From: a virus
Lineage: Duplodnaviria > Caudoviricetes
Virus record (IMG/VR): IMGVR_UViG_3300029928_000001
Coordinates: 96,001 to 160,000 of that record
Reading direction: 5' to 3' (one strand)
Length of the DNA stretch: 64,000 nucleotides
In this document: positions 46,388-56,869 of the stretch, one piece after another
Layout of the letters: each line of letters begins with the position of its first letter
Numbering within the stretch: the first letter of the stretch is position 1
Translations under genes and position numbers: made by a program
The notes under the pieces: model-generated
Told to the model about the DNA's origin: nothing
The model's database searches: none
Seen by the model: the letters and a program-made list of their open reading frames with translations, nothing else

Positions 46388-47437
46388 TCACTTTTTTTTA
46401 TTACGGCATTTCTTACAGATACTATAATATCCATCTTTACTGGTTTTATTTTTGGAAAAATATTTATTATGGGCTAATTTAATTTGCCCACACTTACTAC
46501 ATTTTTTATAACGTCCACGCGCATAATTAAGATAGTAATTATCAAGCCATTCATCTTCAGCTTGTGATGCAATTAATTTTGGAATTTTATTGCGCCAAAG
46601 ACTTGATATATATTCTACGCTATGTGTTTCTCCAAATTCTTTATTTAACAATTCTTGTATTTCTATATTTTGTAATCCATCAATTTTATATTGAACAATT
46701 TTTTCATATAATGGATAGTCCATAAGCGCAGCTGTACTGGTATTATCAAAGTCTTCCATGAGATGCCAAGTATCACTTGGTAATTGGTCCCATGAATCTT
46801 GTTTTAATTTAGAATAATTGCATAAGATAAAAGAGCATACTCTTTTATCTAATAAACTTATTCCAGAAGGAATAGGAAATTCTTTATCATTAAAATCTTC
46901 TGTCAAATCGGGCAATTCTAAATAATGTTTGCCGCGAGTGAGATTCATTATGCCGATCGGTTTGCGATAAGCAGCTTTTATTACATATTGGTCTTTGCGC
47001 ATCTCTATTAAAGCTCTTTTTATTATATACGCGTCTTTTCCTTCTGCAACTTTTAATTTTTCTTCCCATAAATGTATTGTTTCACGCAATTGTTTTAAAA
47101 AAGGAATTTCATCTATATCTTTCTTTGTTATTGTCACTTTTGGTCTTAAAATCATATGTTTATTTTCAGTCATCATATTATAAATTGCGTCTTCGCCATT
47201 TTCTAGCTAAGAAACAAGACCTTCAAACGATGTTTCATTTTTATTAACTGTAATCATACGATTATCAGTTAAAATTTTTCTTTCTCGTTTTTCTTGTTTT
47301 TCCATACACATAATGAGATAATCTGCTAATATTTCTAAATATTTTTCATTTGGTTCTTCTTCTAATTCATCTAAAATTTTTTTTACTAACTCATTACGCT
47401 CTTCTGGAGTCTATAAAGTATAGTCTAACTTTATCAC
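46388..47437 (-). CDS. Putative transcription regulator, 349 aa (sigma region-4-like HTH plus C-terminal Zn finger)
   Basis: GTG 47437 after AGGAGG; TAG at codons 9 and 77; in frame with track ORF 46388..47176. Confidence 0.65.
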
Positions 47438-48799: not shown

Positions 48800-49095
48800 G
48801 AGGTTTATTATCCCTTACTTTTTTTGCGATTATAGAATTTGAGAAACATTTGATAGGAGTTTGTCCCAGGTAATAACCTTTTTCTCTTTCCAAAATAATT
48901 TTTTCCCGTAATACACGCCCCCTTTTTCTCTAACGAGAAAAAGTACAAGCTCTATTGTCGCCTTTCAGGCGCCAAGACCCCACGGGTAAAAATAACACCC
49001 TCCCACAAACTATAATACTTGCTCGCGCCGCTTGCAGACGCAAACGGCGTGCCTTCTATTAATTTACATTCTTACCACTTTTTTCCAAGAGAAAG

Positions 49096-49112
49096 TTGGC
49101 ACGAATCTTGCA
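49096..49112 (+). promoter_or_regulatory. sigma54-type -24/-12 box
   Basis: TTGGCACGAATCTTGCA matches TGGCACG-N4-TTGCW. Confidence 0.6.
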
Positions 49113-49228
49113 TAAGGTCTTCCTGAAATTACCATTGTACTAAATAAAAAACATTGCAAAACCTCTTGACAGACTTGCTCGACTATGCTATACTATAAGT
49201 ACAGTAAAGGAAAGAACGAGGTAAAAAA

Positions 49229-49552
49229 ATGTTAGAAAGAATGAAAGACTGGGCTATTATGTTATTAACTGTAAGTATTATCCTTATCATTGCCGTTGTA
49301 TGCGGTATCATGCAGACCGCAGACGCTGACACAACGACACGCACAATGGAAGCAACTGCCATTGCCAAAACTTACCATGAACAAGGCGATTACACTTCTA
49401 TGACCTTCCGCACAAGCGATGGCAATGAGTGGACGTATGACTATACAGTATGTCCTATTGGTGCAAAGTGTACTATTACCTTTGATACACAAGGCACAAG
49501 CACGGTAGAGGATGACATTATTACAAACATCATGTGTGAGTTGGCAGAGTAA
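49229..49552 (+). CDS. Membrane-anchored hypothetical protein, 107 aa
   Basis: Own promoter and GAGGT RBS; hydrophobic N-terminus. Confidence 0.8.
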   Translation: MLERMKDWAIMLLTVSIILIIAVVCGIMQTADADTTTRTMEATAIAKTYHEQGDYTSMTFRTSDGNEWTYDYTVCPIGAKCTITFDTQGTSTVEDDIITNIMCELAE

Positions 49553-49640
49553 AAAATCTGCCAACTCTTGAAAAAGCTATTGACAACATCAACATTCTAT
49601 GTTATACTATAGATACAGCAAAGGAAAAGAGGTAAACAAA

Positions 49641-49796
49641 ATGAAAAAGTTTTTAAGCAATGCAATTACTACAGTATCTGCTATCTTTGTCGCTTGGTTT
49701 GTACTCTCATGGCTTGAGGTATGTTGCAAGAACACAGCACCAGACCCACAGTATTCACCATTAAACTTATTAGTAATTTTATTAGAAAACGCTTGA
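49641..49796 (+). CDS. Small membrane protein, 51 aa
   Basis: GAGGT RBS before ATG 49641; own promoter. Confidence 0.75.
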   Translation: MKKFLSNAITTVSAIFVAWFVLSWLEVCCKNTAPDPQYSPLNLLVILLENA

Positions 49797-49877
49797 CAAA
49801 CACATCGATAAACCTATTGACAACTTGCCTTGCTTATGGTATACTTTAAATACAGTAAGGAAAGAGAGGTAAACAAA

Positions 49878-50084
49878 ATGAGAACTATTTGTTACAAATT
49901 GGACACACCAATTATTTATAATAAAGGTACAAAGTACGAAAAACATTTAGATACATTCTTAGATAAATACATTGCTGGAACAGATGAAGAGATTCAAGCA
50001 ATCATCGACGAAATGAACCAAAAGGCAAAAGATAGAGTGTATTTTATGGACGAACAGTCGATGTTCGACACTACAGGAAATTAA
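49878..50084 (+). CDS. Hypothetical protein, 68 aa
   Basis: GAGGT RBS; own promoter. Confidence 0.75.
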   Translation: MRTICYKLDTPIIYNKGTKYEKHLDTFLDKYIAGTDEEIQAIIDEMNQKAKDRVYFMDEQSMFDTTGN

Positions 50085-50153
50085 AAAAAGATATTGACAA
50101 AGTATTAAAAGTATGGTATAGTAAAGATACAAAAAAAGAAAGAGGTAAATAAA

Positions 50154-50432
50154 ATGTTGACAAAAGTAACAGTAAAGAAAATGAATAATGAAGTATATAT
50201 TAACTTAACAGACCATTCAGACAGTGTATACAAAAATACTCTATGGATTGTAGCAGACTTGGTAAAATTAGGATATAATTTTATAGAAATAATTCCGTAT
50301 GGAGTTATCAGAGTCAATACAAATGATTATAAAGGTGTGACCTTTGGGGTTCAAAAATGGTTAAAAGAAAATGAGATTATTGAAAATATAAAATTAGATA
50401 CAGAATATACAACATTTAATTTATTAGATTAA
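50154..50432 (+). CDS. Hypothetical protein, 92 aa
   Basis: GAGGT RBS; own promoter. Confidence 0.75.
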   Translation: MLTKVTVKKMNNEVYINLTDHSDSVYKNTLWIVADLVKLGYNFIEIIPYGVIRVNTNDYKGVTFGVQKWLKENEIIENIKLDTEYTTFNLLD

Positions 50433-50507
50433 AAAAAACTTATTGACAAATTAAAAAAAGTATGTTATAATAAATTATAATCAAAAAGGAAATGAGGTAA
50501 AAGAAAA

Positions 50508-50720
50508 ATGTTAGAAATGATTTTATTACTGGTTACGGCTTGCGGTTTGATTATGTGGACGGTACACAAAGACCGCAAGAAAGCAAATTGGTTTTATGTA
50601 GTTGACAATTTAAGCATTGATGTTTGCCGCAAGTTTTCCGACTTGGCAACAGCTCAAGAGATGTATAACTTGTGTGTGGCAGACGGGCATGAGGTTTATT
50701 TAAAGAGATTAAGGGGCTAA
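50508..50720 (+). CDS. Membrane-anchored hypothetical protein, 70 aa
   Basis: GAGGT RBS; own promoter; hydrophobic N-terminus. Confidence 0.75.
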   Translation: MLEMILLLVTACGLIMWTVHKDRKKANWFYVVDNLSIDVCRKFSDLATAQEMYNLCVADGHEVYLKRLRG

Positions 50721-50734
50721 AGCCCCTTAGGTGT

Positions 50735-50777
50735 GAGGGTAACGGCATTCTATGGCGGTTCAATTCCGTCAACCCTC
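50735..50777 (+). ncRNA. tRNA-like minihelix (acceptor stem and T-arm only)
   Basis: GAGGGT...GGCGG-TTCAATT-CCGTC-A-ACCCTC. Confidence 0.45.
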
Positions 50778-50977
50778 TGTTTTACCTCTTGTGGACATGG
50801 AGCGAGTCCTCAGACGCTCCTCTCCTTTTAGCAAACACATGTTCATTTTTTATACCTCTTAAAAAGGATTGGAATTTATTTCCAGTCCTTTTTTCTTTGC
50901 GCCGGCGGCGCGCCCACGGTTGCAGGGCGCGTTTTTTTCAGATATTTCCAATGCTACCACTTTTTTACAGTGTAAAG

Positions 50978-51033
50978 TTGGCACGAATCTTGCATGGTCG
51001 CTTCCTGAATTTACCATTGGCACGATTCTTGCA
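50978..51033 (+). promoter_or_regulatory. Two tandem sigma54-type -24/-12 boxes
   Basis: TTGGCACGAATCTTGCA (50978) and TTGGCACGATTCTTGCA (51017). Confidence 0.6.
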
Positions 51034-51155
51034 AGGTCCTCGGGCTGGCAAGATCTGGAAGAAAAATTTTTTTTATTTTTTTATCGAAAACCCCTTGACA
51101 GGTTCGCTGTTCTGTGGTATACTTTAGATACAGTAAAGGAAAGAGGTAAACAAAA

Positions 51156-51614
51156 ATGACAAAGACAACATTCTTAAAACATTACAATTCGTTTTCAGCA
51201 GCTCATAACTACTTGGTATTCTTCTTATATAAGAAAAATCTGTATATGGCAGAATGTGGAAAAATCCAGCCAAGATGGGTAGTAGAAAACTATGAAACAT
51301 ATGGACACACACAGAAATACATGATTTCTCTGAAAAACCAACATAAAGAACAGTTAATCCGCAAAGGCGCAAAGCTGTTAATGACAGAATCCGAATTTAT
51401 GGCAATAGATGTACCAAACAGGGGTAGAAAATGTGAAAAGTGGCTACATGAGACTACTAACCAAGACGGCGTATATAAATATGATACAGTACCATTCAAT
51501 ATTGATGGCGATATTACAATCAATGGAATTAAATACCAAGTAAAATTCCAAAACGCAAGTCTTGCGAATGTAAGAACGATTGAAAAATTAAAGAAAGAGA
51601 GAAGAGGAAAATGA
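51156..51614 (+). CDS. Hypothetical protein, 152 aa (possible nuclease-like fold)
   Basis: RBS and promoter; GD...YQVK motif is only suggestive. Confidence 0.75.
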   Translation: MTKTTFLKHYNSFSAAHNYLVFFLYKKNLYMAECGKIQPRWVVENYETYGHTQKYMISLKNQHKEQLIRKGAKLLMTESEFMAIDVPNRGRKCEKWLHETTNQDGVYKYDTVPFNIDGDITINGIKYQVKFQNASLANVRTIEKLKKERRGK

Positions 51615-51715
51615 AAAGTCGGTGGAAAAATTCCACCGACAAAATAAAGAAAAACTATTGACAGAGTGGAAAAAAGATGCTATAATAAAGAAAAGATAAA
51701 GAGAGGTAAGAAAAA

Positions 51716-52162
51716 ATGAAAAAAACAATTTGGTTTGATCTTGACGGTACACTTGTTAATTTATACGGCGTGCAAGACTGGTTGCCTATGATTCAGGCAT
51801 ACGACCCAACACCGTACGCTGTAGCAAAGCCACTTGTAAGATTCAGTCATTTAGCAAGATTGCTAAATATGCTCCAAGGGCAAGGCTACAATATCGGCAT
51901 TATCTCTTGGTTAGCAAAGAATAGCACCGCCGAATATGACGGACTGGTAGCGGAAACCAAAAGAGCATATTTAAGAAAGCACCTGCCGAGCGTACGATTT
52001 GATGCAATCAATATTGTGCCTTATGGAACATTAAAAGATACTTTTAATAATGGTTTTGACTTTCTCTTTGATGATGAAGAACAAAACAGAGAAAATTGGA
52101 CTGGTGAAGCATATGACGCAAAAGATTTAATTGCGGTTTTACAAGAAATGGTAAGGGGGTAA
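51716..52162 (+). CDS. HAD-superfamily phosphatase (5'(3')-nucleotidase-like)
   Basis: FDLDGT motif I, IISW motif II and LFDD motif IV. Confidence 0.85.
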   Translation: MKKTIWFDLDGTLVNLYGVQDWLPMIQAYDPTPYAVAKPLVRFSHLARLLNMLQGQGYNIGIISWLAKNSTAEYDGLVAETKRAYLRKHLPSVRFDAINIVPYGTLKDTFNNGFDFLFDDEEQNRENWTGEAYDAKDLIAVLQEMVRG

Positions 52163-52193
52163 GAGTGGATATACATCCACTCTTTTTTATATA

Positions 52194-52210
52194 TGCAAAA
52201 ATCATGCCAA
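52194..52210 (-). promoter_or_regulatory. sigma54-type -24/-12 box
   Basis: TTGGCATGATTTTTGCA on the minus strand. Confidence 0.55.
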
Positions 52211-52389
52211 CTCGACAGCGGCCGGCCCACGGATGCGGGGGCCGGTTTTCCATTATACCACAACTCTACACACTTTGTCAAGCGAAAATTAATAAAAAAA
52301 ATAAAAAAACTTTTTTCCTAAAACCCCTTGACAAACCGGTGTCCTTGTGTTATACTATAACTACAGTAAGGAAAGAAAGAGGTAACAAA

Positions 52390-52530
52390 ATGAAAGTATT
52401 CGTAGTATACAATTCGTTAAATCTTCCAGTTTTAACCACTGAAGACGAGTCCCTTGCAGACTGGACCGCCGCTTTTGAAGGTGGTTACTTTGTCGAGAAA
52501 TTTGACAAAAATTACCACTTGACATGGTAA
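52390..52530 (+). CDS. Small hypothetical protein, 46 aa
   Basis: GAGGT RBS; own promoter. Confidence 0.65.
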   Translation: MKVFVVYNSLNLPVLTTEDESLADWTAAFEGGYFVEKFDKNYHLTW

Positions 52531-52576
52531 TCATTCTATGTTATAATAAGGTATAAACAAAAAGGAGATTGATAAA

Positions 52577-53320
52577 ATGAAAGAATTATTTATGACCATT
52601 GACACAGAAACCACAAACTCACTTGATGACCCATTGTGCTATGATGTTGGCGGTTGTATCCATGATGAACACGGCAAGGTATACAAGACATTTTCTTATG
52701 TAGTGTATGAGATTTTTTTCCAAGAGTTGGAATTAATGAAAACAAGTTACTTTGCTGAAAAGATTCCGCAGTATTTAGAAGAAATTGAAAACGGCACAAG
52801 AGTTGTGGCAAGATTTTCCACAATCAAAAAAAGAATTGCTGAAATGTGCAAAAAGTACAATGTTCAAGCCATCATTGCTCACAATGCAAGATTTGATTAT
52901 AAGTCTTTGTCAACAACACAGAGGTTTTTAACTTCTTCCAAGTATAGGTATTTTCTTCCTTATGGTATTCCAGTTTATGATACTCTGAAAATGGCAAGAA
53001 ATACCATTGTTAAGACAGAAGAATACAAAGTATTTTGTAAGAAACATGGTTTTGTGGCAAAAAATGGAAATCCAAGAGCAACAGCGGAAGTTCTTTACAG
53101 ATTCTTAACAAATGATTTAGACTTTGTGGAAGAGCACACAGGCTTACAAGACACTTTAATTGAAAAGGAAATTTTTGTAAAGTGCTTACAGATTGACCCT
53201 AATGTGGAAAAAAATTGCTTTACACCAAAAATCTATTGTACTTGCGGTTGCCCTTGTTCCATGGCACGCATTAACGGCACTTGCAAGAAAACTGACAATA
53301 AATGTAAGTGGGGGTTTTAG
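52577..53320 (+). CDS. DEDDh 3'-5' exonuclease (DnaQ-like)
   Basis: IDTET, AHNARFD and HTGLQD motifs; ends TAG. Confidence 0.85.
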   Translation: MKELFMTIDTETTNSLDDPLCYDVGGCIHDEHGKVYKTFSYVVYEIFFQELELMKTSYFAEKIPQYLEEIENGTRVVARFSTIKKRIAEMCKKYNVQAIIAHNARFDYKSLSTTQRFLTSSKYRYFLPYGIPVYDTLKMARNTIVKTEEYKVFCKKHGFVAKNGNPRATAEVLYRFLTNDLDFVEEHTGLQDTLIEKEIFVKCLQIDPNVEKNCFTPKIYCTCGCPCSMARINGTCKKTDNKCKWGF

Positions 53321-53345
53321 CCCCCGCTTAGAAAGGTGGTAAAAA

Positions 53346-53558
53346 ATGGATTTACAAAAAGCGTATGAAATGGTATTTAATGATATGACAGGAAGAGGTT
53401 CCAGCTTTTTCCAAGGAAATTATGATAGTAAAAATGGCAACAAAGAATTTATGTATGGTATTCTTACAGTAATGGAATTTATTTCCTATGAAGTAGGAGT
53501 GGAAGATTTTGACAATGTATTTATAAAAAATATGGTAAAAAGTGAAGAAAAGGCTTGA
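53346..53558 (+). CDS. Hypothetical protein, 70 aa
   Basis: AAGGTGG RBS. Confidence 0.7.
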   Translation: MDLQKAYEMVFNDMTGRGSSFFQGNYDSKNGNKEFMYGILTVMEFISYEVGVEDFDNVFIKNMVKSEEKA

Positions 53559-53963
53559 CATCAAGCCCTTTTTGTGGTATAATGGGTGCCCCGCGCACGG
53601 CTGAGGGCGCGGGTTTTTCATTATACCACATTTGCACCCATTTTGTCAAGAGAAAAATGCGAAAAAAATAAAAAAACTTTTTTTCCTAAAACCCTTGACA
53701 AAATGGGTGTATGGGTGTATACTATAAGAGTACTAAGGGTTAAGGCAAACGGCAAGCCTAAGAAAAACTTGAAAAAAGTTAAAAAAGTACTTGACAAATT
53801 ACTTAACCTGTGGTATACTTAAAGAGTAGTAAGGGTTAAGGCAACAAAGCCAAAGTTAAAAAAGTTAAAAAAACCTCTTGACAAACTGCCGAATCCATGC
53901 TATAATAAGATATAAGATAAACCAAAGGGGTTGTGACCTACCACAAGAAAGAGAGTTGATACT

Positions 53964-54320
53964 ATGGAAAAGAAAATGACTAAAAAAGAAATGTTCGCCG
54001 CTATTATTGCAAAGTATGACCTGACCACAGATGAAGTGGAATTCCTCAACCATGAGATTGAACTTTTGGAGAGAAAAGCGGGCAAAGACCGCAAACCAAC
54101 AGCTAACCAGTTGGTAAATGCTGGAATTAAAGAGGAAATTGTTTCCATTCTCACAGGAGCGGAACGCATGACTTGCACAGAGATTGCTAAGGCTCTTCAG
54201 CCGTCCCACACAGAGGATATCTCCGTGAACAAGGTTTCCGCTCTGATGAAACAGCTTATTGAAGCTGGAAAGGTTGTAAAGACCGTTGAAAAGAGAAAGT
54301 CCTATTTCTCTGTAGCTTAA
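53964..54320 (+). CDS. Winged-helix DNA-binding protein (paralog of 56507..56869)
   Basis: MTCTEIAKAL...VSALMKQLIEAGKV. Confidence 0.8.
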   Translation: MEKKMTKKEMFAAIIAKYDLTTDEVEFLNHEIELLERKAGKDRKPTANQLVNAGIKEEIVSILTGAERMTCTEIAKALQPSHTEDISVNKVSALMKQLIEAGKVVKTVEKRKSYFSVA

Positions 54321-54376
54321 TTCCAAAGGCGGGGGAATAAATCCCCCGCCAATAAAAAAGAAAGAGGTGGTAAAAA

Positions 54377-54607
54377 ATGCCAATGAATTTTGAAATCAAA
54401 GTTGAAAAACAAGACAGTTTATCCCAAGAAGAAAATAACATTATTCGTGCTTTACAGATTTTACAAGATGTTTGTTCAAGTCATGATAACTGTAGAATTG
54501 TTTGCCCATTATGGAGCATGGAACTGGAAGAATGTGTAATATCTTATTGCACCAATCCATTAGACATAGACATCAACCCATGCCGAACTTTTAGGGCGGT
54601 AAAATAA
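54377..54607 (+). CDS. Cys-rich hypothetical protein, 76 aa
   Basis: GAGGTGG RBS. Confidence 0.7.
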   Translation: MPMNFEIKVEKQDSLSQEENNIIRALQILQDVCSSHDNCRIVCPLWSMELEECVISYCTNPLDIDINPCRTFRAVK

Positions 54608-54668
54608 TCCGCCTATTGACTTTTATAATTTATTATGTTATAATAAATTATAAAGAAAAATAAAGGAG

Positions 54669-55058
54669 TTGATACCTATGGCAAAACCTACCAGAGAACA
54701 CATTGAAAAGTTGATGAAAAATCTTGATTTGACGGAAGAAGAAGCACTGGAACTTATTGCCAGTGATGATGAGGTAGACCACATGAAAGCAAGTGCTGTC
54801 AATGATGATTTAACAGACGCCCAAAAGAAAGCAAGCAAGAAAGCCCGTTCAAGTGGTAAGACCACCGTCGGCAAAACTAAAGTAGTTAAAGAGAAAAAGA
54901 TTGATGATGACAAAGTTTTCCTTGTAAAAACTTTCCAGTCGCTCTTGGAAAATCTTAACAATACAGAAAATGTAAATGTTGAGAATGAGCAAAAAATTAT
55001 TACATTTAATTACAATGGAAGAAAATTCAAGATTGACTTGTCAGCACCAAGAAAGTAA
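54669..55058 (+). CDS. Hypothetical protein (paralog of 56900..57256)
   Basis: AAGGAG RBS and promoter; shares LT.EQKK and E..I.F..NG..(F/Y).I.L...RK with the paralog. Confidence 0.8.
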   Translation: MIPMAKPTREHIEKLMKNLDLTEEEALELIASDDEVDHMKASAVNDDLTDAQKKASKKARSSGKTTVGKTKVVKEKKIDDDKVFLVKTFQSLLENLNNTENVNVENEQKIITFNYNGRKFKIDLSAPRK

Positions 55059-55310
55059 AATTTAGACAGGAATTAAATTCCTGCCTATTTTTTCCATAGT
55101 TTTTGGAAAACTCTGTCAGTCTTGGGAGAAATTTCCAGGCGGCCGCCCGCTCTCGAATGAGGCGGGCAGTTTTCCACATTTTTACAGTATTGGCACAATT
55201 TTTCAACCAAAAGAACATGAAAAAATTTTAAAGAAATTTGCCCGAAACCCCTTGACACGGTACGCAATTCATGTTATAATAAGGTATACCAAGAGGAAAG
55301 GAGAAAGAAC

Positions 55311-56506: not shown

Positions 56507-56869
56507 ATGGAAAAGAAAATGACTAAAAAGGAAATGTTTGCACAGATTATCAGAAACTACAATCTGACAACAGAGGAAGTAGACTTCCTTAACCATGAGA
56601 TTGAATTGTTAGCAAGAAAAGCTGGCAAGGATAGAAAGCCAACTGCTAATCAGTTAGCTAACCAGTCCTTAAAGGCTGAAATGTTGGCACTTATGGAAGA
56701 TAACAGACTGTACACTTGTACAGAGTTATCCAAGGAGTTACAGAAAACTCATGTTGAGGATATTTCTGTAAATAAGACTTCCGCATTACTTACACAGTTA
56801 GTCACAGAGGGTTCTGTAGAAAAAACTGTAGAGAAAAGAAAGTCTTACTTCTCCAAGGTTTTAGGTTAG
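56507..56869 (+). CDS. Winged-helix DNA-binding protein (paralog of 53964..54320)
   Basis: Identical MEKKMTKKEMFA start and KTVEKRKSYFS end; TAG stop. Confidence 0.8.
   Translation: MEKKMTKKEMFAQIIRNYNLTTEEVDFLNHEIELLARKAGKDRKPTANQLANQSLKAEMLALMEDNRLYTCTELSKELQKTHVEDISVNKTSALLTQLVTEGSVEKTVEKRKSYFSKVLG

Follow-up and report, generated by a model that had tools for sequence, protein, structure and literature searches.

Bacterial promoters of the enhancer-dependent sigma factor sigma-54 (SigL or RpoN) carry a -24/-12 element, and they include tandem sigma-70/sigma-54 promoters such as glnAp1/p2. A perfect sigma-54 box in intergenic DNA is normally a promoter. Sigma-54 is viewed as a host-only factor that stays locked until an activator acts, and descriptions of phage transcription rely on sigma-70-type factors or on polymerases of the phage. 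The present analysis concerns four sigma-54 boxes in the early region of a phage, located in a DNA stretch of 64,000 nucleotides (the window) that represents bases 96001–160000 of the 178,419-bp IMG/VR virus record IMGVR_UViG_3300029928_000001. In Escherichia coli, chromatin immunoprecipitation with sequencing (ChIP-seq) has revealed transcriptionally inactive and intragenic sites of the sigma-54 holoenzyme (Bonocora et al. 2015, PMC4591121). The expression of genes overlapping the intragenic sites was not lowered, which the authors regarded as ruling out repression by a roadblock (PMC4591121). The PeSL (promoter-early stem-loop) elements are mobile regulatory cassettes of T4-type phages (Arbiol et al. 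2010, PMC2839356). A full-text literature search found no description of sigma-54 sites as cis-elements of phages. The nearest paper is a preprint proposing that the early protein Htm of T4-like phages, which has a fold like that of bacterial enhancer-binding proteins (bEBPs) and no GAFTGA loop, might act on the sigma-54 polymerase.

An earlier note on this DNA had placed sigma-54 boxes at 49096, 50978 and 51017 on the plus strand and at 52210–52194 on the minus strand. These positions are borne out, and all four sites match TGGCAYG-N4-TTGCA (Table 1). Three of them agree with the consensus TGGCACG-N4-TTGCW at 12/12 positions and one at 11/12. The shorter pattern TGGCAYG-N4-TTGC has four matches in the window, against none in any of 100 dinucleotide-preserving shuffles (mean 0.00, maximum 0). 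A motif scan of the entire genome (178,419 bp), which the earlier note had proposed as a check, yielded no further site with at least 11/12 consensus positions; all four boxes thus lie within 3.1 kb. They are all non-coding, and their motif has no dyad symmetry.

Two segments thought to be diverged copies of each other prove to be so: 49062–49137 and 50944–51019 are 80% identical, with the 17-nt box conserved at 17/17 positions and all 15 mismatches located in the flanks (15/59 flank positions). The weakly conserved flanks (aaagT before the box, A after the G, and T or A after TTGC) also fit the sigma-54 consensus. A supposed degenerate copy at 55190 stood up only in part. The GG is present at the homologous place, and the surrounding module shares CCAC-T-run-ACAG, but the GC of the -12 element is missing, which makes this copy a decayed homologue and not a box.

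The boxes are not confined to the window phage. A close relative (locus L125), in which the product of the 152-amino-acid gene is 94% identical, keeps boxes 2a and 2b and the backward box. Its orthologue of box 2a differs by two substitutions, both at degenerate consensus positions, and its box 2b is identical to that of the window. In the non-coding DNA that can be aligned between these two phages, 0/36 core positions have changed, compared with 37/401 positions elsewhere (p=0.036). The distant relative IMGVR_UViG_3300028888_000426 (28.7 kb), whose nucleotidase and exonuclease are 52–57% and 44–53% identical, respectively, has three boxes within 2 kb. One of these follows the terminator of the nucleotidase gene, is aimed back at that gene and is preceded by a GC dyad, which corresponds to the junction of module 3 in the window (see below), and the non-coding DNA around it cannot be aligned with the window. 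Orthologues of the backward box are found at the nucleotidase junction of both L125 (2136, minus strand) and the distant relative (L095 11635, plus strand). Among the 11 boxes of these three phages, 12/17 positions are invariant, and variation is confined to the other five, precisely those that read Y, r or N in the sigma-54 consensus. The spacing between GG and GC, a lack of conservation of which had been named beforehand as a possible refutation, is invariant in the 11 copies.

These regularities make it probable that the boxes are bound by the sigma-54 holoenzyme of the host. The match to the sequence, the clustering, the pattern of conservation, the module context and the lack of rpoN and bEBP genes in the phage are direct observations. 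The earlier view of the boxes as sites for host sigma-54 RNA polymerase gains from the matched extended consensus, the invariant core of the 11 copies, the position kept in the distant relative and the missing phage genes. The interpretation of the earlier note as a whole is borne out only partly, and its decoy, roadblock and DNA-entry anchor are candidate functions. A profile search of the phage genome detected no Sigma54_DBD domain and hence no rpoN. As it encodes neither sigma-54 nor an activator, the phage seems to use the host enzyme in a manner for which the literature search found no description. The sigma factor of the phage itself (phrog_5767; 46388..47176, on the strand opposite to the early block) was considered as the reader and rejected as unlikely, since the motif occurs in no late operon.

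The motif recurs in viral contigs of 35–65% GC with unrelated gene sets, often in dense arrays of up to 14 copies, and only a universal host factor fits such a spread. Among 119 viral loci that one pattern scan yielded, at least three boxes within 400 bp were present in 36/119; these arrays lie in gene-free gaps, with a podovirus-type terminase-portal block beside the array in 19/36 array loci. In these nineteen contigs (L007, L040, L051, L067, L079 and others), a block of terminase, M15 endolysin and SU10-type portal genes stands on one side, early genes (for a PF17338 GP88-like protein or for ThyX) stand on the other, and a C-rich tract comes just before the array. A terminator facing the box was discarded as a general feature, as a strict hairpin finder returned 1 case among 328 boxes of other viral contigs. 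Within 80 nt upstream of the same 328 boxes, a co-directional terminator occurs 8 times against 1.

Five GC-hairpin modules divide the early region into blocks. The boxes had been said to sit beside these hairpins, and they do: those at 49096 and 50978 lie 43–46 nt downstream of a hairpin, that at 51017 lies 85 nt downstream, and the minus-strand box is about 9 nt away. The neighbouring genes have consensus sigmaA promoters (49166–49194, 51095–51123 and 52328–52356), likewise as stated. The further claim that the boxes have no dedicated downstream gene applies to the minus-strand box alone. The three plus-strand boxes face 49229..49552, the gene of a small membrane protein, and 51156..51614, which has no assigned function; they are located 117–162 nt upstream of the start codons, with the sigmaA promoter in between.

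Table 1. Positions of the sigma-54 boxes and of the elements associated with them in the window.
Feature	Position	Strand	Remarks
Box 1	49096..49112	+	TTGGCACGAATCTTGCA; module 1; 43 nt after GC hairpin 49025-49052; 117 nt before ATG 49229
Box 2a	50978..50994	+	TTGGCACGAATCTTGCA; module 2; paralogue of box 1
Box 2b	51017..51033	+	TTGGCACGATTCTTGCA; 39 bp after box 2a; 123 nt before ATG 51156
Backward box	52194..52210	-	TTGGCATGATTTTTGCA; between the terminator of the nucleotidase gene and a GC hairpin, aimed at the end of that gene
Decayed box	55190..55205	+	TTGGCACAATTTTTCA; GG present, no -12 GC; homologous place of module 5
GC hairpin, module 1	49025..49052	+	
GC hairpin, module 2	50899-50931	+	with T-run 50899..50938
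GC hairpin, module 3	about 52220..52249	+	contains the CGGCCGG motif
GC hairpin, module 4	53590-53613		
GC hairpin, module 5	about 55139-55169		
Intrinsic terminator of nucleotidase gene 51716..52162	52161..52190	+	predicted start of the backward box lies inside
Backward consensus sigmaA promoter	52252..52281	-	TTGACA-18-TATAAT with TG; would direct transcription into the GC hairpin and across the backward sigma-54 box
Module 4	53590..53649	-	GC hairpin and backward sigmaA promoter 53649-53620; no sigma-54 box; state typical of the clade
Forward sigmaA promoter of gene 51156..51614	51095..51123	+	downstream of boxes 2a and 2b
Forward sigmaA promoter of gene 49229..49552	49166..49194	+	downstream of box 1

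Modules 1 and 2 are built in the same order. One or two forward boxes come 43–46 nt after the hairpin, and behind them stand an A/T-rich tract, then the sigmaA promoter and finally the gene. In module 3, the stop codon of the nucleotidase gene (52162) and its terminator (52161–52190) are followed by the backward box (52210–52194), the GC hairpin, a perfect backward sigmaA promoter (52281–52252) and the forward promoter of the next gene. Module 4 repeats this layout minus the sigma-54 box. A GC dyad lies upstream of each box, and the box points away from the dyad. When the modules are aligned, the -24 element TTGGCA of modules 1 and 2 stands opposite TTGTCA, the reverse complement of the -35 element of the backward promoter, in modules 3 and 4; the two are one substitution apart. 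Each of the four backward boxes that belong to the HAD-junction type (three at HAD-gene junctions, and L125 771) is preceded at 6–8 nt by CGGCCGG/CCGGCCG. As a general composite motif, CCGGCCG-N5-9-box was rejected, as it is limited to this lineage and the remaining matches are GC-rich chance occurrences. The backward sigmaA promoter at 53620–53649 (minus strand), likewise perfect and directed straight into its GC hairpin, would give an antisense RNA of about 70 nt ending at the bidirectional terminator 53548–53571.

The modules also mark the places where L125 departs from the window. At 438–810, L125 contains an extra 71-codon gene cassette at the junction corresponding to window 50897/50936, and the 3' end of this cassette consists of a terminator, a backward box and a GC hairpin. 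The small gene of window 52391–52530 is absent from L125, and the backward sigmaA promoter 52252–52281 is conserved there. These differences at module borders imply that cassettes are gained and lost at the modules.

The phage itself is a large gut or rumen phage of Gram-positive bacteria. The record has a GC content of 31%, and CheckV rates it as complete. Reading TAG as Q opens the minus-strand structural genes, which encode proteins similar to those of large Bacillus siphophages and of Phass-1, a gut phage with code 15. The sole plus-strand block, 47.6–58 kb, begins with the gene for release factor 2 (RF2) and continues with some twenty small genes. Each of these has a strong ribosome-binding site and, in front of it, a TTGACA-17-TATAAT promoter that is close to consensus and carries a TG extension. 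This block is an early, host-sigmaA-driven region of a Bacillota phage; the style of promoters and ribosome-binding sites and the relatives of the structural proteins point to Bacillota. Between 46.5 and 59.5 kb there are about 20 consensus sigmaA promoters and 26 terminator-like hairpins, which make up the repeat families D1–D9. A blastn comparison of the region with the phage collection gave no match, and Rfam at its gathering threshold found nothing in the window. The homologues P0002 and P0003 are 80–82% identical.

Two paralogous winged-helix genes are present in the early region (53964..54320 and 56507..56869), the first 150 nt of which are 79% identical (repeat D8). An 88-nt transfer RNA (tRNA) for phenylalanine with anticodon AAA was called by ARAGORN at window 50691–50778, where it overlaps the end of gene 50508..50720. 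The call has no Rfam match, is kept in L125 (about 260–320) and may represent a tRNA-like element instead of a tRNA.

The wider clade was sampled as 79 loci around exonuclease homologues, 1.13 Mb in total. About 75/79 of these relatives have no box near the exonuclease gene; the boxes are accessory and not a clade-wide trait. At the same place, the clade at large has backward sigmaA promoters directed into a GC hairpin. Such a hairpin follows within 60 nt after 48/179 strong promoters directed against the early genes and after 8/884 forward ones, and the unit of backward promoter and GC hairpin occurs in 26/80 clade loci. A backward polymerase entry site beside a GC hairpin is thus what these borders normally have. 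Sigma-54 boxes occupy or adjoin the place of the backward sigmaA promoters in a few lineages.

A short GC dyad similar to GCCCGGGC follows the nucleotidase gene in most relatives. Among about 65 related phages with AT-rich DNA (loci L225–L303), the majority have GCCCGGGC(G) or a near variant between the nucleotidase end and the next promoter. In locus L237, a GCCCGGGCG dyad lies 5 nt from the box, which has the backward orientation and precedes a homologue of the 152-amino-acid gene by about 150 nt. About 1 kb of gene-free DNA with GAACATATGTTC palindromes, GC-rich blocks and TTGTCAGAATATT and CAGTATGCAGTAT repeats adjoins backward sigma-54 boxes in L055 80–1100 (13.2–14.3 kb of IMGVR_UViG_3300028888_000426) and in L237 1150–1300; it could be an origin or terminus region. 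Bacillus phage Kirov, a cultured B. cereus phage (MW084976.1), has one intergenic and one intragenic site. The former, a consensus box aaagTTGGCACGCTTTTTGCT at 158086–158102 (L136 1085–1103), stands in a 1.4-kb gap free of genes, with the block of small genes 326 nt downstream, and the latter lies inside Kirov_274.

The best hint at the host, a weak link, is a 74%-identical RF2 on a 4.2-kb contig binned into a metagenome-assembled genome (MAG) of Absicoccus. With RF2 as the probe, no viral relatives were found, and bacterial genomes gave this one contig, which is likely a mis-binned phage contig and is free of boxes for 1 kb downstream. A comparison of Absicoccus with the portal protein and with 20 kb of the phage DNA gave promoter-like short matches only and no spacer. 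Sigma54_DBD is encoded in 20/20 sampled Absicoccus genomes, and the MAG with the RF2 contig is also positive. In five Absicoccus genomes, the box pattern has 11–14 sites per 2.1–2.6 Mb in four and 2 in the fifth, the fragmentary MAG G004; some of these sites share 16-mers with the phage, and no two are closer than about 1.7 kb. Absicoccus sigma-54 promoters have A/T-rich upstream repeats and a gene 40–100 nt ahead, and they lend no support to the GC hairpins as activator sites, a candidate role that was dropped. In two Absicoccus genomes (G012 and G015; loci L309, L310 and L321), three sigma-54 boxes are followed directly by a long (CCAA)n microsatellite, which might be a phase-variable leader.

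The interpretation that we favour, tentatively and with slightly less than even confidence, is that the boxes are real, selectively kept sites of the host sigma-54 (SigL/RpoN) holoenzyme and act as activator-gated promoters, both sense and antisense. They would belong to mobile modules of terminator, GC hairpin and promoter that separate the early gene cassettes. The holoenzyme would dock on them as a closed complex and, because the phage has no activator of its own, would fire only while an enhancer-binding protein of the host is active. The three forward boxes would add a second, conditional promoter before two early cassettes, as in bacterial tandem sigma-70/sigma-54 promoters. The backward box would start antisense transcription into the end of the preceding cassette, which related phages may do constitutively with backward sigmaA promoters at the same place. 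This interpretation is preferred because the boxes are perfect and intergenic, the forward ones face genes, at ordinary leader distances, tandem promoters are known and relatives carry backward sigmaA promoters. The binding and firing of the holoenzyme are what we infer, as is the identity of the activator.

Several observations weigh against conditional promoters. A search of the phage for enhancer-binding proteins found no PF00158, PF14532 or PF07728 (Sigma54_activat, Sigma54_activ_2 and AAA_5). The phage boxes have no upstream activator repeats like those of Absicoccus, only GC dyads at a distance of 4–46 bp (4–10 bp for backward boxes). Ahead of the backward boxes there is neither an open reading frame nor a conserved RNA, only the antisense of a terminator and a gene end, and transcription from the backward box is predicted to start within the terminator hairpin. 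The orientation of boxes with respect to genes is mixed and not conserved, and most independent copies are aimed against genes. The distribution is narrow: the clade sample holds six boxes, in 4/79 exonuclease loci, three of the six being on IMGVR_UViG_3300028888_000426, and Phass-1 has 0. Finally, the link to a host consists of the single MAG-binned contig of 4.2 kb.

Some of the same facts agree with the main rival, a different and rather unlikely use of the boxes in which the holoenzyme binds and never fires. The silent complex could be an insulator at the border or an aid to termination, or the boxes could be decoys that titrate sigma-54 once the phage DNA has replicated. The missing phage activator and the aim of most independent copies against genes suit this explanation, as does the position of the backward boxes, which abut the T-run of the terminator at 9–10 nt at two different junctions. 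Paired boxes are spaced at 26–39 bp, and dense arrays occupy gene-free gaps in many unrelated viral contigs. The local density is also high, at 4 boxes in 3.1 kb, compared with the 11–14 per 2.1–2.6 Mb in four of the five Absicoccus genomes. However, the undiminished expression of genes overlapping intragenic sites in E. coli (PMC4591121) weakens a pure roadblock. Four sites per genome would be a thin decoy, and a decoy does not explain their fixed positions, while the terminator facing the box is a rarity elsewhere. A broader version of this idea is less probable still and, in our judgement, unlikely: sigma-54 boxes might be a general cis-element with which phages of many lineages park this host polymerase, the one bacterial form able to stay on DNA without firing, at borders of transcription units or in gaps at genome ends, either as a control device that needs no activator or as a private polymerase pool unlocked by an unrecognised phage factor outside the AAA+ family.

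It is quite improbable that the boxes have another reader, such as a DNA-binding protein of the phage or the host, or a recombinase that acts on mobile cassettes, and only resemble sigma-54 promoters. Boxes do travel in modules whose gain or loss as whole units separates the window phage from L125, CCGGCCG always accompanies the backward boxes of the HAD-junction type at its short upstream distance, and the two winged-helix genes of the region would supply candidate proteins. Against this stand the lack of dyad symmetry, the match at every informative sigma-54 position and the restriction of variation to positions where sigma-54 tolerates it, besides the occurrence of the motif in phages of widely different GC content and gene sets, which points to a universal host factor, and the poor case for the phage sigma factor. 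Both this explanation and the one that follows lose probability because the boxes are conserved in the manner of the sigma-54 consensus. Least probable of all is that the boxes have no function and are chance or host-derived sequences spread by duplication of intergenic modules: three of the four do belong to one repeat family, most relatives have none and the copy in module 5 has decayed, but the minus-strand box lies outside that family, the core is kept against diverged flanks in paralogues and orthologues alike, and one box position is kept at about 55% protein identity, a divergence at which neutral non-coding DNA is beyond alignment.

The boxes raise two options, namely an early programme tied to the signalling of host enhancer-binding proteins or a parked polymerase as a structural control element. 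Because the motif recurs as arrays in many other viral contigs, an answer obtained here would apply widely. If polymerase parking were true, the window would be its example in a Bacillota phage, sited where related phages have a backward sigmaA promoter.

Compared with the silent E. coli sites (PMC4591121), the phage boxes are alike in that the holoenzyme could sit on them without firing and that many have no obvious gene to serve. The E. coli sites, however, are scattered, mostly intragenic and often weak, whereas those of the phage are perfect, clustered in 3 kb, non-coding and linked to terminators and GC hairpins. The PeSL cassettes share with the modules the repeated unit of a strong sigma-70-type promoter and a stem-loop between small early genes, and in both cases it is at these units that whole cassettes have been inserted or deleted between close relatives, here the window phage and L125. 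Unlike PeSL, the modules belong to a phage of another host phylum and of an unrelated lineage, with structural proteins like those of large Bacillus siphophages, and they add GC-rich hairpins, backward promoters and, in few lineages, sigma-54 boxes. With bacterial sigma-54 promoters, the boxes have in common the identical -24/-12 element, the GG and GC 10 bp apart and the non-coding location, and the forward boxes stand at a normal distance from the start codon and upstream of a second promoter. They differ from those promoters in being carried by a phage without rpoN or bEBP, in having no recognisable activator sites and in standing 26–39 bp apart; several copies are aimed at the 3' end of the preceding gene, and they are embedded in repeated, mobile boundary modules. 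The element itself is a classical -24/-12 site, and what is non-classical is its carrier, a phage without the rest of the system, together with the boundary-module context and the backward orientation.

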